DNA of 64,000 nt from an uncultured Alphaproteobacteria bacterium (GCA_963783265.1 CAWAMU010000017.1:286-64285); one strand, 5' to 3'. Shown: positions 32,323 to 60,989, numbered from the stretch's first letter. Numbers and translations are program-made. The notes: a model not told the origin generated them from the sequence alone.

Positions 32323-33352
32323 CTACTTCTCCTGGCCAATCGCGTGCTTCTTCATCGTATGGCGCAACTGGTCATAGGTAAGGCCAAGGGCCTGGGCGGT
32401 CTGGCGCTGGTTCCAGCGATTGGCACCCAGCGCATGTTCGACGATCGACTTCTCGTGATCGTCGACCGCGGCGCGCAAGTCGGTGATGTCGTCCAGCCGC
32501 GGCCGCGGGGCGGACTGCTGGCGCGCCGACTGGCTGGTATTCTCGGCGCCAGCAGGGGTTGCACCGGGCAGCGGTTTCCACGGCGAATCGAACGGGTCGA
32601 ACACGACTTCGCCGATGGGCTGTTCCCAATTATCCCAGCGATAGACCGCGCGCTCCACCACGTTTCGCAGTTCACGCACATTGCCGGGCCAGGGATGGTT
32701 TTCCAGTCCGCGCGCAACATGATCGGCGAAAGCCGGGCCATTCATCCCAGCTCAGCTCTGCGGCCATGCGCCTGCCGAAATAGTCGGCCAGCACGGGAAT
32801 ATCCCCTTCGCGCACGCGCAGGGGCGGCAGGGTGATGACCTCGAATGTCAGGCGGTCGAGCAGGTCGGCACGGAAGGTGCCTTCGTCCGCGCGGCGCGGC
32901 AGGTCTTCATTGGTGGCAGCCACGATGCGCACATCGACGCGGGTCGGTCGACTGGCACCGATGCGCGTAACCTCGCCATATTCCACCGCCCGCAGCAGCC
33001 GTTCCTGGGCGCCCATGGACAAGGTGCCCAGTTCGTCGAGAAATAACGTGCCCCGGTCGGCTTCCTCGAACCGCCCCTCGCGCGCTCTGGTAGCGCCGGT
33101 GAACGCGCCCTGCTCATGGCCGAACAGTTCGGCCTCGATCAGGGTTTCGGGAAGCGCAGCGCAGTTCATGGTGACCAGCGGCTCTTCCCAGCGATCGGAC
33201 AGGCGGTGCAGGCGTTCGGCGATCAATTCCTTGCCGGTGCCGCGTTCGCCGATTACGAGTACCGGGCGCGCCATCGGCGCGGCGCGGCTGGCCCGCTCCA
33301 CCGCATCGAGAAAGGCGCCGGACTGGCCGATGAACTGGTTATCGCGCTCCAT
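32323..33352 (-). CDS. pspF: Psp operon sigma-54 activator PspF (apparent frameshift ~32740)
   Basis: GERGTGKE, GAFTGA, LFLDE, PWPGNVREL and a C-terminal HTH. No N-terminal regulatory domain. Divergent from pspA. Confidence 0.93.
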
Positions 33353-33361
33353 TGCCAAGAT

Positions 33362-33467
33362 ATAGTGCGATTTCCCAACACTTGGCAATAGACACCAACC
33401 ATCTTTTCTCTTTTCTGCGAAAAAACCGCAGGAATCCGCCATTCCTGAAATTTGGCACGGCTGTTGC
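33362..33467 (+). promoter_or_regulatory. Sigma-54 promoter of the psp operon with candidate activator sites
   Basis: TGGCACGGCTGTTGCA at 33452-33467 (GG-N10-GC). Upstream are ATAGTGCGATTTCCCAA (33362) and TTGGCAATAGACACCAA (33382), candidate PspF sites. Confidence 0.85.
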
Positions 33468-33504
33468 AATTCATGGTGTAGAAAGGGTTCAGGAGGAAAA
33501 ACAC

Positions 33505-33657
33505 ATGTTTGATCGCAGCTTCTTCAACAGCCAACTTGGCCAGGCCGCCATGGTTAGCATCGCCGCGATGATCGCCTTCACCATCTTTGCCGGCATGGAG
33601 CCGGTGGCAGACACGCCAGCCATGCTGGTGGGCCTGCCGACGGTGGAACTGGCGTGA
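33505..33657 (+). CDS. 50-aa hydrophobic protein, first gene of the psp operon
   Basis: AGGAGG RBS. MFDRSFFNSQLGQAAMVSIAAMIAFTIFAGMEP..VELA. The stop overlaps GTG 33654. Confidence 0.7.
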   Translation: MFDRSFFNSQLGQAAMVSIAAMIAFTIFAGMEPVADTPAMLVGLPTVELA

Positions 33658-47355: not shown

Positions 47356-48083
47356 ATGATGACAAATAAGTCACCCAACCACCCGCCTGCCCCCACATCC
47401 GCACACGCGCAATTCCGCTATTTCGACCTCGTGATGGCGGCGTTTGTGGTGGTGCTGGTGCTGTCCAACGTCATCGGCGCGGCCAAGCTGTCGACGGTGG
47501 CAGGCTTCACCTTTGGCGCCGGCATCCTGTTCTTCCCGTTGTCCTATGTGATCGGCGACGTGCTGACCGAGGTTTACGGATATGCCCGCGCGCGGCGTGT
47601 GATCTGGGCAGGGTTTGCGGCGCTGGTGTTCATGGCCGTGATGAGCTTCGTGGTCGTCTCCCTGCCTCCCTCGGAAAGCTGGACCGGGCAGGAACTCCTA
47701 TGAGCAGATCTTCGGCCAGGTTCCGCGCATCGTCCTTGCATCTATCACCGCCTTCTGGGCGGGAGAATTCGTCAATTCATACGTGATGGCGAAGATGAAG
47801 CTCTGGACACAGGGCAAGGCGCTGTGGGCGCGCACCATCGGCTCCACGGTGGTGGGCCAGGGCGTCGACAGCCTGCTGTTCTACCCGATCGCCTTCCTCG
47901 GCGTTTGGGAGACGAGCGATGTGTTGCTGGTGATGGTGACGAACTGGGCGCTGAAAGTTGGCTGGGAAGCCTTGCTTACGCCCGTTACCTATCGCGTGGT
48001 CGGCTTCCTGAAGAAGCGCGAGGGTGTCGACATTTTCGACGAGGACACCGATTTCTCTCCCTTCGCGGCACGCGAAAACCGAT
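47356..48083 (+). CDS. Queuosine precursor transporter (YhhQ/VUT family; frameshift ~47695)
   Basis: LSNVIGAAK..FFPLSYVIGDVLTEVYGY..RTIGSTVVGQGVDSLLF..K.GWEALLTP. Confidence 0.85.
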
Positions 48084-48110
48084 AGGGAATGGGCGAAATG
48101 GCCGCCGGCG

Positions 48111-48332
48111 TCAGTCCGCCAGCAGCCAGATCGCTAGGTAGATGAGGATGAAGGTGCCGAACCCGGCGACCGCACCAACGGCGAAGATGATACGCACGAT
48201 GAGCGGGTCCATCCCAATGTATTTGGCAATACCGCCGCACACGCCGGCGATCTTGCCGTTGGTCTTGTCGAGGCGGAACTTCTTCTGTCCCGACAACCCT
48301 ACGGGATTGTCTCTGCGGTCAAGGTTGCTCAT
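48111..48332 (-). CDS. Stand-alone PspC-domain protein
   Basis: FRLDKTNGKIAGVCGGIAKYIGMDPLIVRIIF..ILIYLAIWLL. Confidence 0.88.
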   Translation of the reverse strand: MSNLDRRDNPVGLSGQKKFRLDKTNGKIAGVCGGIAKYIGMDPLIVRIIFAVGAVAGFGTFILIYLAIWLLAD

Positions 48333-48451
48333 GCCAGCAAGCCTACGACGGTGGTTGCGTGGGGGTTGGCAAAGCTGCTTACCAGCATGGTGAAAGTAAC
48401 GGCCACGGCGGCGAGGCCGGCCATCAGCTTGTTCTGGAATTCGTTGGTCAT
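48329..48451 (-). CDS. 40-aa hydrophobic peptide
   Basis: AAGGAG RBS. MTNEFQNKLMAGLAAVAVTFTMLVSSFANPHATTVVGLLA. ATGA overlap with the PspC-domain gene. Confidence 0.75.
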   Translation of the reverse strand: MTNEFQNKLMAGLAAVAVTFTMLVSSFANPHATTVVGLLA

Positions 48452-48490
48452 TTCAGTCTCCTTGGGTTTGGTGGTGGTTGGTGGTTGGCG

Positions 48491-48619
48491 TCAGGCAAGA
48501 ATGCTGGCGAAGATGCTCGCTTCGGGTGTCGAGAAGCTGCTGACGAGGATCGTGGTGGTCACGATAATTGCCGAAAGAGCAGCGGTGATGCGAGCGGCGA
48601 AGTCATTGGTGAAAGTCAT
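48491..48619 (-). CDS. 42-aa hydrophobic peptide, paralogue of the 40-aa peptide
   Basis: GAGGG RBS. MTFTNDFAARITAALSAIIVTTTILVSSFSTPEASIFASILA. Confidence 0.75.
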   Translation of the reverse strand: MTFTNDFAARITAALSAIIVTTTILVSSFSTPEASIFASILA

Positions 48620-48671
48620 TTTGTTTCCCTCTTGTGTTAGATCGGAACCATTCCGTCCCATGCACCAAACA

Positions 48672-48779
48672 TTGCACAGGGTGTGCCAGTTTTGAAAAAC
48701 GGCGGAATTCTGCCATTCTCGTTCACCAAACAGAAAGGTTGGCTCGAATGCGAAACCGATATGTGGTGAAATTCACCAA
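48672..48779 (-). promoter_or_regulatory. Sigma-54 promoter with palindromic candidate activator site
   Basis: Minus strand TGGCACACCCTGTGCA (GG at 48687/86, GC at 48675/74). TGGTGAA-A-TTCACCA palindrome at 48764-48778 and a half-site GTTCACCAA at 48721. Confidence 0.78.
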
Positions 48780-48842
48780 TCAATGGGATTGCTAATTGCG
48801 GTGGCGCCGGCCCATCACCTCGCATAGGGATTGCGCGATATC

Positions 48843-49928
48843 ATGGCGCTCGATCGCATCACCCTTTCAACCTTCCGCAATCACGACGGAACGCAGCTGG
48901 ACGATACGCGCCAGATGAACCTGCTGGTGGGGGAGAACGGCGCGGGAAAGACCAATATCCTCGAGGCTCTGTCGCTATTCTCGCCGGGCCGGGGAATGCG
49001 CCGCGCCGCGCTGGCCGATATGGCGGGGCATGCCGGACAGGGCGGCTTTGCAGCCAGCGTCACGCTGGATACGCGCGATGGCGGGGAACCGGTGAAGCTG
49101 GGCACCGGCATGGCGGCAGATCGCCCCGGCAGACGGATCGTACAGGTCAATGGCGCCGAGACCAGTGCCATCAGCCTGGGTGAATGGCTGGCCGTGGGCT
49201 GGCTGACGCCGGCGATGGACCGCCTGTTTGCCGAAAGCGCCGGGGCACGGCGACGCTACATGGATCGCCTTGCCGTGGCTCTGGAGCCGGAACATGCGCG
49301 CAACGCCAGCCGGTATGAAGCCGCCCTGCGCGAACGAAACAAGCTGCTGTCGGACGATATGGAGCCCGACCCTGCATGGCTGGAATCGATAGAAACGCAG
49401 ATGGCACTGGTGGGTGCCGGGCTGGCGCAGGGACGTGCCCGGCTGGTGGGCGCCCTCACCGCGCGGCTGGCCGAACTGCCCGAAGCGCCCTTTGCCCGGC
49501 CCATGTTATCCTACAATCCCGGTGGGGCGCTGACCCAGGGTGATCTCGCCGCGCAATGGCGCGAGGAACGCGGCCGCGACCGCGCGGCGCAGCGAACCTT
49601 GTCCGGCCCGCATCGTGATGAGCTGGGCGTGGCGATGGCGGGCAAAGACATGCCTGCCGCTGAATGTTCGACCGGCGAGCAAAAGGCCATGCTGGTTGCA
49701 ATCACCCTCGCTCATGCAGACCTGGCAGCGCGCGGCAGGCCCGGCGTACTGCTGCTGGACGAGGTTGCCGCGCATCTCGATCCCGTGCGGCGCGAGGCGC
49801 TGTTTGCAAGGTTGCGCGATAGCGGAACGCAGGTGTGGCTCACGGGCACGGAGCCCGCCCCTTTCACGGCGATACTGGAAGAGGCCGCAGTCTGGCGCGT
49901 CGCCGGTGGCGCGGTCGAGCGGACTTAG
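48843..49928 (+). CDS. recF: DNA replication/repair protein RecF
   Basis: FRNH, GENGAGKTNILEALS, GPHRDEL, STGEQKA, LLLDEVAAHLD. Confidence 0.95.
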   Translation: MALDRITLSTFRNHDGTQLDDTRQMNLLVGENGAGKTNILEALSLFSPGRGMRRAALADMAGHAGQGGFAASVTLDTRDGGEPVKLGTGMAADRPGRRIVQVNGAETSAISLGEWLAVGWLTPAMDRLFAESAGARRRYMDRLAVALEPEHARNASRYEAALRERNKLLSDDMEPDPAWLESIETQMALVGAGLAQGRARLVGALTARLAELPEAPFARPMLSYNPGGALTQGDLAAQWREERGRDRAAQRTLSGPHRDELGVAMAGKDMPAAECSTGEQKAMLVAITLAHADLAARGRPGVLLLDEVAAHLDPVRREALFARLRDSGTQVWLTGTEPAPFTAILEEAAVWRVAGGAVERT

Positions 49929-60233: not shown

Positions 60234-60989
60234 TCACACCCAGTGCCTCTCTGTCAGGATCAGGCCAGCGTAAAGCAAGACACCCAGCACGAAGGGCAGG
60301 AAAAAACTCTTCCGCTCCGCGGGCAGTTCTTCCTTCAGCACATTCAGGATGATGCCGCCCGCCAGGAAGGCGAACAGGCAGCCGATCAGGACTGGGGACA
60401 GTTCCACGATCAGGCCCAGCACCCAACCGGCCAGGACCGCGGCGCTGATGACCCAGCGACCCAGCCTCTCATAAGCTTCGGGATGATCCTGCCGCATGCC
60501 GAAATCGGCAGTGAGGAAATGCAGGCCCATCGCGACGAAATACAGGCCAAGCGCCCACGCGCCGCTTTCTTCGCGGTGCAGTAGCAGGTACCCGATCAGG
60601 GCATTGAATGTGCCATAGGTGACGAGATGCAGGTACAGCACGTCATTGCGCATCCGGTCCCCCTCGCCCGCCTCGCGGCTTTCGCCCCGGCTGACCTTTA
60701 CCGCCCGCTCCAGCCCGTAGAATACGGCCAGCCCCGCCAGGGTCAGCGAGTAGATGACGCTTTCCGCCGCCATGGCATCCACGCCCATGCTTTCGGCGAA
60801 TTCCCGTTGGTGAGCGGCGATATCGGGCAAGACGTGCAGGAACACATAGGCAACGGCCACGCCGCCCGCGAAAGATAGCCAACCGCTGCGCGGGGTGACA
60901 TCGAGGAAGTGCAGGCGGCGCACCAGCAGGTGAATGGCAATGAAACCACTGGCCATTGCTGCGGTAATGATGACTTCGCCCTGCTCCAT
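60234..60989 (-). CDS. Membrane protein, ZIP metal-permease-like
   Basis: SFAGGVAVAYVFLHVLP and FAFLAGGIILNVLKEELP resemble ZIP TM2/TM7 segments. Confidence 0.5.
   Translation of the reverse strand: MEQGEVIITAAMASGFIAIHLLVRRLHFLDVTPRSGWLSFAGGVAVAYVFLHVLPDIAAHQREFAESMGVDAMAAESVIYSLTLAGLAVFYGLERAVKVSRGESREAGEGDRMRNDVLYLHLVTYGTFNALIGYLLLHREESGAWALGLYFVAMGLHFLTADFGMRQDHPEAYERLGRWVISAAVLAGWVLGLIVELSPVLIGCLFAFLAGGIILNVLKEELPAERKSFFLPFVLGVLLYAGLILTERHWV

Follow-up and report, generated by a model that had tools for sequence, protein, structure and literature searches.

A small operon lying divergent from recF in an Aurantiacibacter genome is probably a separate transcription unit of the PspF/sigma-54 Psp envelope-stress regulon, from which small inner-membrane proteins would be produced. 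This satellite operon, with all its elements, occupies positions 48111-48790 (minus strand) of the window, i.e. the whole stretch of 64,000 nucleotides that was analysed, and it adjoins recF (48843..49928, plus strand, with its ATG at 48843). A sequence-only reading had listed for this locus a palindrome, a box shared with other promoters, a -24/-12 promoter, two paralogous peptides and an ATGA-coupled gene for a 73-aa PspC-domain protein, and each of these was recovered on the minus strand at the positions given below. They represent more than chance, because they are conserved in 27 loci and because the peptides are under purifying selection. The operon can be regarded as real, conserved and probably PspF-controlled, with an undescribed family of microproteins, while the stress regulon to which it appears to belong is of a kind already known and not a new system.

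Promoter, enhancer and palindromic box

The predicted -24/-12 promoter (TGGCACaccctgTGCA, 48688-48673, minus strand) has the GG at -24, the GC at -12 and the TGGCAC-N5-TTGCW spacing of a sigma-54 promoter, and would initiate transcription near 48662; the minus strand of the satellite locus yielded no sigma-70-like promoter. The pattern TGGCAC-N5-(C/G/A)TGCA is kept at 18 loci of the genus and at nine loci of other genera. In a phylogenetic footprint of 17 genus loci, conservation was confined to the inverted repeat, a pair of spacer blocks, the palindromic box and the promoter, other intergenic DNA being randomised. The spacer blocks (AACCTTTCTG and TGAAC, 48721..48740, minus strand) are situated between the enhancer and the box, and it is possible that they are bound by an architectural protein. 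A further match of this general type, the fourth in the window and of the form TGGCAC-N6-TGC (TGGCACATTCAATGC, 60601-60615, minus strand), is present without the box.

Upstream of the satellite promoter lies a 17-bp inverted repeat (TTGGTGAATTTCACCAC, 48779-48763, minus strand), the 5' end of which is located 91 bp upstream of TGGCAC, and the TGGTGAA-A-TTCACCA contained in it occurs a single time in the 3.25-Mb genome. This is an inverted-repeat upstream activating sequence (UAS) of the PspF type, as expected of a member of the PspF regulon. The main psp promoter of the same genome, which adjoins pspF (33362..33468, plus strand), served for comparison and carries two such sites as opposed to the one of the satellite: UAS I (ATAGTGCGATTTCCCAA, 33362-33378, plus strand) at offset 91 and UAS II (TTGGCAATAGACACCAA, 33382-33398, plus strand) at offset 71, followed by a box (GCAGGAATCCG, 33428-33438, plus strand) at offset 25 and by the sigma-54 promoter itself (TGGCACggctgtTGCA, 33453-33468, plus strand). 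As the sequence-only reading had noticed, these 17-bp sites end in CCCAA (UAS I) and CACCAA (UAS II). Across the genus, main psp promoters possess ATAGTGAAATTTCCCAA-type and TTGGCAAT-N5-ACCAA-type sites beside pspF, and the same motif is found at the known UAS position of the E. coli pspF-pspA intergenic region (ATGATGAAATTCGCCAC and TTAGTGTAATTCGCTAA); the satellite UAS and the E. coli pspA UAS ATGATGAAATTCGCCAC are identical at 13 of 17 positions. The helix-turn-helix of the local PspF (NQRQTAQALGLTYDQLRHTMKKH) is also close to that of E. coli PspF (NQKRAAELLGLTYHQFRALLKKH).

The likeness of the satellite repeat to PspF sites was quantified with two position weight matrices. The first of these drew solely on main-psp UAS I sites from other genomes. 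Among about 6.5 million positions scored with it, the genome's own main psp site ranked 1st and the satellite repeat 16th; when the psp site of one more genome (G010) was added to this matrix, the satellite repeat ranked 1st. Of the top 25 sites obtained with the first matrix, three lie no more than 220 bp from a match resembling a sigma-54 promoter, and an offset of 91 was seen only for the main psp and the satellite sites. The third of these sites, on contig C6 (offset 59), was considered as a further regulon member and was judged a chance match, being inside a coding region. The second matrix combined main-psp and E. coli sites, and the best site was taken in the region from -150 to -30; this site was found at offset 90-92 in all of the 27 satellite promoters and at offset 91 in 11 main psp promoters of the genus.

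The palindromic box of the satellite (GGCAGAATTCCGCC, 48714-48701, minus strand) has its GCAG core 25 bp upstream of TGGCAC. Boxes of the GGCAGAATTCYGCC type were found at 33428-33438 (plus strand), 45413-45403 (minus strand) and 48713-48703 (minus strand), in each case with GCAGRAWTC exactly 25 bp upstream of the TGGCAC of a sigma-54 promoter (33453, plus strand; 45388, minus strand; 48688, minus strand, respectively). Genome-wide, the box is present at three of 49 sigma-54-like matches, all three of which are inside the window, and the other 46 lack it. It is near-invariant at the satellites of the genus, and retained at only about seven of 11 main psp promoters. In several relatives the box is a perfect palindrome (GGCAGAATTCTGCC), of 14 bp in locus L013, which suggests a dimeric binder rather than IHF, and its constant distance from three sigma-54 promoters may reflect an additional level of regulation.

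Microproteins, truncated PspC and their conservation

The first gene of the operon (48619-48491, minus strand, preceded by the ribosome-binding site AGAGGGA) specifies microprotein 1 (MTFTNDFAARITAALSAIIVTTTILVSSFSTPEASIFASILA), a 42-aa product with one predicted transmembrane helix at residues 11-29, and the second (48451-48329, minus strand, ribosome-binding site AAGGAG) specifies its 40-aa paralogue, microprotein 2 (MTNEFQNKLMAGLAAVAVTFTMLVSSFANPHATTVVGLLA). The two are 48% identical, and both fit the shared pattern that had been described for them from the sequence, TN(D/E)F..(R/K)..A.L.A..VT.T.LVSSF..P.A.....LA. For microprotein 1 a longer form of 56 aa, starting from an ATG at 48661, was considered and rejected, as this ATG coincides with the predicted transcription start and lacks a ribosome-binding site; the 42-aa form is thus the likely product. 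A ribosome-binding site precedes each peptide gene in every orthologue. Among close orthologues, variable sites at codon positions 1, 2 and 3 numbered 15, 7 and 28 for peptide 1 and 9, 4 and 20 for peptide 2, and pN/pS was 0.24 in frame versus 1.2 and 3.0 off frame for the former, and 0.16 in frame versus 1.0 and 7.5 off frame for the latter. Both peptides are therefore coding and under purifying selection in frame only, and this selection, together with the ribosome-binding sites and the conservation, rules out that they are chance open reading frames.

Each peptide contains a 19-residue window with a Kyte-Doolittle value of 1.95 and a basic residue in front of it, and the hydrophobic segment has a mean column identity of 0.64 as compared to 0.55 for the tail. 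Based on these features, the peptides are predicted to be single-pass inner-membrane proteins with the N-terminus inside and a tail of about 12 residues outside. A database search with the family profile returned about 144 clusters, all of 40-42 aa, of which the named ones are all 'hypothetical protein' from Aurantiacibacter, Alteraurantiacibacter or Erythrobacteraceae, names from which the genus can also be recognised. The sequence-only reading had held that the peptides are missed by annotation, and this is not universally so, since several public Aurantiacibacter annotations do call them 'hypothetical protein'. Searches against Pfam (E up to 10) and NCBIfam (E up to 1) gave chance-level matches only (YlmH_1st, E 0.014; mini_HHHH, E 0.19), and homology to any Psp protein, including PspG, PspB and PspD, was not detected in these two collections. 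The number of peptide copies per locus varies from one to three (locus L007 of genome G018, 1003-1498; L013 and L018-L021), with a deep single-copy clade characterised by LHRAMA...VSYFA.

A small hydrophobic protein is also specified at the head of the main psp operon, where a leader ORF of 50-58 aa occurs in 11 of the 11 genus promoters examined; in this genome it encodes 50 aa (MFDRSFF...VELA, 33505-33657, plus strand) and has its own ribosome-binding site. Profile-profile alignment of the satellite peptides with these leader peptides (hhalign) revealed no homology (probability 0.2%, E 0.31), and it is in architecture alone that the two resemble each other, both having one transmembrane helix between a short N-terminus and a tail that terminates in -LA.

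The third gene (48332-48111, minus strand), the start of which overlaps the stop of microprotein 2 by ATGA, encodes a 73-aa protein, here termed mini-PspC. It matches the Pfam PspC domain PF04024 over residues 17-72 with 69.3 bits (cut-off 25; E 2.5e-19), whereas against the TIGR02978 equivalog model it reaches 56 bits, below the cut-off of 104, and covers positions 2-59 of 121. The main PspC of the same genome, to which mini-PspC is 39% identical, aligns with positions 2-121 of this model at 125.8 bits. The restriction of the match to positions 2-59 implies that mini-PspC is without the C-terminal half, which agrees with the earlier proposal that it lacks the C-terminal coiled coil. The split anatomy that had been put forward was likewise borne out, in that mini-PspC corresponds to the N-terminal half and one array protein, encoded after pspC, shows a weak match (E 0.004) to the C-terminal half; that the mini-PspC half combines with array proteins is speculation. 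Mini-PspC itself would have a cytoplasmic N-terminus and one transmembrane helix, as judged from its sequence.

Mini-PspC is present in 24 of 24 genomes of the genus, in all of which the module adjoins recF and includes one to three peptide copies, and the complete module, i.e. a sigma-54 promoter (TGGCAC-N5-NTGCA), one to three peptide genes and then mini-PspC, was recovered in 18 of 20 fetched loci, the other two being one locus with the promoter stretch as N and one not matching the pattern. Outside the genus, a family profile search of 201 genomes detected the peptides at E < 1e-5 in 12 further genomes from nine other genera, and all nine of the loci inspected have the sigma-54 promoter, the peptides and then a mini-PspC of 67-72 aa, most of them with recF upstream and yhhQ downstream. 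The distance between the satellite and the main pspC is 13 kb here, 9-27 kb in 18 of 19 genus genomes with both on one contig, and about 10-22 kb between the satellite and main psp in several other genera. Consequently, the description of the operon as a second, unlinked one holds as far as it is a separate operon, but not in the sense of true unlinkage, given that the two lie 13 kb apart in one neighbourhood at a syntenically conserved distance. Co-occurrence across genomes, which had been proposed as a check, gave a mixed outcome: pspA is present in all 15 peptide-bearing genomes of the family, a result that is uninformative because pspA is nearly universal there (184 of 201), and three genus genomes keep the satellite without pspF-pspABC.

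The presumed activator and alternative readings

The presumed activator gene, pspF (32323..33352, minus strand), has one base more than in three relatives, near 32729, and is thereby divided between two frames; its two pieces match positions 2-194 and 200-336 of TIGR02974 (332.6 and 118.5 bits, respectively), and the protein is of the PspF type. The rpoN gene is present and also split (C18:584013-584488), and so is the yhhQ-like gene beside the satellite (47356-48085, plus strand). That yhhQ and rpoN are split as well as pspF makes it likely that these frameshifts are assembly indel errors; the alternative is that the strain has lost PspF and sigma-54 function. Public sequencing runs covering the locus consist of four metagenome DNA runs, in which it is partially represented, with no RNA or isolate runs among them, and contigs from these metagenome runs do not reach the pspF frameshift site. 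The genome encodes six sigma-54 activators, namely PspF and five others, so that PspF is singled out by the cis evidence and not by the mere presence of its gene.

Three genomes of the genus (G001, G008 and G011) have no PspF orthologue, their best enhancer-binding protein (bEBP) being 49-51% identical as compared to 92-99% in the others, and pspA was not found in them either. In the corresponding loci (L043, L046 and L044, respectively) rimP directly adjoins the last small gene before the sufE-like gene, indicating a clean deletion that removed pspF, pspABC and most of the small-protein array. All three keep rpoN, intact peptide genes and an intact mini-PspC, and G008 and G011 also retain the satellite promoter, box and UAS; a run of 100 N covers the satellite promoter of G001 (L015, about 1240-1340), and the DNA preceding the residual array gene of G001 and G011 (L043 and L044) contains such runs as well. 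In G008, no convincing sigma-54 promoter was found upstream of this residual gene. In a RecF tree, very short branches join G001 and G011 to the psp-bearing G012, and G008 is placed beside G023, which also bears psp; it follows that psp was lost at least twice in the genus, and recently in G001 and G011. Because the losses are repeated and, in these two genomes, recent, retention of the satellite represents weak evidence against its dependence on PspF.

The persistence of the satellite, with promoter, box and UAS, in genomes without pspF-pspABC would nevertheless suit a reading in which the operon depends on sigma-54 but another enhancer-binding protein takes the place of PspF or acts in addition to it, which would make the operon part of a different or overlapping stress regulon. 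The five other bEBPs of the genome provide candidates for such a role, and the invariant palindromic box could be the site of a further factor. We consider this reading unlikely, since the UAS is of the PspF type in both sequence and spacing, pspF was lost only recently in G001 and G011, and the neighbour of G008 in the tree is a psp-bearing genome; furthermore, the only bEBPs of G001 are NtrC- and NtrX-like, and the known sites of NtrC and NtrX look different from the satellite UAS. The inverted repeat might also be mainly an operator of recF for an unrelated regulator, its likeness to a PspF site being coincidental. The repeat does lie in the upstream region of recF, 64-80 bp from the start codon, and the psp UAS of E. 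coli likewise extends over the promoter of the divergent pspF and affects pspF. However, across genera the repeat keeps a distance of 90-92 bp from the sigma-54 promoter, whereas the spacing and the sequence on the recF side vary, and the motif matches PspF sites, which leaves a dedicated recF operator as a very improbable explanation. Under PspF control of the satellite, the position of the site would still mean that PspF binding might affect recF transcription as well.

A different kind of alternative concerns the products. The peptides of about 40 aa could be Sec signal peptides, cleavage of which would release an 11-13-residue peptide (e.g. NPHATTVVGLLA) as a secreted or periplasmic signal, and this could occur under PspF regulation as well. 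Their layout, with an n-region containing R/K, a 15-residue h-region and a c-region of SSFA or SSFS, would be that of a signal peptide, and the conserved S-x-A before x-Pro, the invariant P32 and the near-invariant C-terminal Ala after hydrophobic residues are reminiscent of a cleavage site and of a nonpolar C-terminus that could be recognised. What disfavours this interpretation is that the hydrophobic segment is the best-conserved part of the peptides, better conserved than the tail and thus the opposite of what is typical of signal peptides, and that the single-copy clade has Y, a disfavoured residue, at -3 (VSYFA). Processing of the peptides into a signal is accordingly regarded as quite unlikely, and an anchored single-helix protein is preferred. 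It is also conceivable, if not very likely, that the microproteins and mini-PspC form a self-contained membrane device that operates without PspA, PspB and full-length PspC, in which the peptide helices would pack on the transmembrane helix of mini-PspC as a 'split' sensor/effector, with dosage set by peptide copy number (one to three) and gating by PspF and a box-binding protein; such a device would explain why the satellite survived after repeated loss of pspF-pspABC.

Proposed mechanism and relation to known Psp systems

The preferred reading remains that of a satellite member of the PspF regulon, as had been suggested from the sequence. It is favoured by the type of the UAS, its 91-bp offset, the helix-turn-helix of PspF, the shared box and the single UAS, as at pspG, while the three pspF-less genomes that keep the satellite, the five other activators, the interruption of both pspF and rpoN and the lack of detectable homology between the peptides and Psp proteins count against it. 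According to this model, membrane stress would cause PspA to release PspF, which, bound to the repeat at 48763-48779, would remodel the sigma-54 holoenzyme at 48688-48673 as it does at pspA; we hold activation of this kind, in which one PspF-type enhancer acts from 91 bp before the -24 element, to be likely. Induction would probably be weaker than at the main promoter, as at E. coli pspG, owing to the presence of one UAS instead of two. One mRNA starting near 48662 would then direct synthesis of the two paralogous single-helix microproteins and the coupled 73-aa mini-PspC, all of which are expected to insert in the inner membrane. There they would probably act jointly, considering that the ATGA coupling suggests matched production and that the peptide helices carry small-xxx-small motifs (AAxGAxA), and they may, speculatively, serve as accessory effectors or modulators of the PspB/PspC complex. 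Equally speculatively, contacts along the conserved helix (AAxGAxA, TLLVSSF) could bring the peptides and mini-PspC together, and they could in this way modulate PspBC or add to its function.

What is known of the Psp response comes almost entirely from enterobacteria, in which the PspF regulon comprises pspABCDE plus pspG. If the present assignment is true, this alphaproteobacterial locus would represent a second type of satellite documented for the PspF regulon, and would place an uncharacterised microprotein family in a regulatory setting. It would also offer a compact test case, in which nature provides different peptide copy numbers, relatives without pspF and a truncated PspC, and with which the regions of PspC and the small partners required for sensing of membrane stress or protection against it could be addressed.

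With respect to its PspC component, the satellite can be compared to two classes of known proteins. Mini-PspC shares with the canonical PspC of pspFABC operons (TIGR02978) the PF04024 domain, with an N-terminal cytoplasmic segment and a transmembrane helix, but differs from it in being without the C-terminal coiled-coil/leucine-zipper half and in not being preceded by pspA or pspB. It resembles the stand-alone PspC-domain proteins of PspA-free contexts in being short, with little beyond the PspC domain, and in being located away from pspA (PMC11237479). For such stand-alone proteins, a survey of Psp systems has described Toastrack, LiaF-TM, HAAS/PadR and histidine-kinase partners, contexts which do not include a PspF-type sigma-54 promoter with upstream microproteins (PMC11237479). 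With respect to its control region, the satellite is similar to the E. coli pspA promoter (UAS I/II and IHF site) in that an inverted-repeat enhancer of the same motif is positioned about 80-100 bp upstream of TGGCAC and in that the DNA between enhancer and promoter is conserved. It departs from that promoter in having one UAS rather than two, and in that the intervening 14-bp palindrome is unlike the asymmetric IHF site.

The closest analogue of the satellite operon is E. coli pspG, reportedly described by Lloyd et al. in 2004, a gene that is unlinked, depends on PspF and sigma-54 and encodes a small protein of the inner membrane. Both are separate units of the Psp regulon, as predicted in the case of the satellite, with a sigma-54 promoter, a single UAS and small membrane products. 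Unlike pspG, the satellite lies 9-27 kb from the main operon, is fixed beside recF and has an extra palindromic box 25 bp before the -24 element, and its products, one to three single-helix microproteins and a truncated PspC paralogue, show no sequence relation to PspG (Pfam, E up to 10). The difference in UAS number between the main and satellite promoters has its parallel in E. coli, where pspA has two UASs and pspG one (PMC3709507). PspG interacts with PspC, and in Aeromonas salmonicida pspG is found beside pspA and pspC paralogues (PMC3041696); this pspA'-pspC'-pspG cluster shows that there is a precedent for satellites that include PspC paralogues (PMC3041696).
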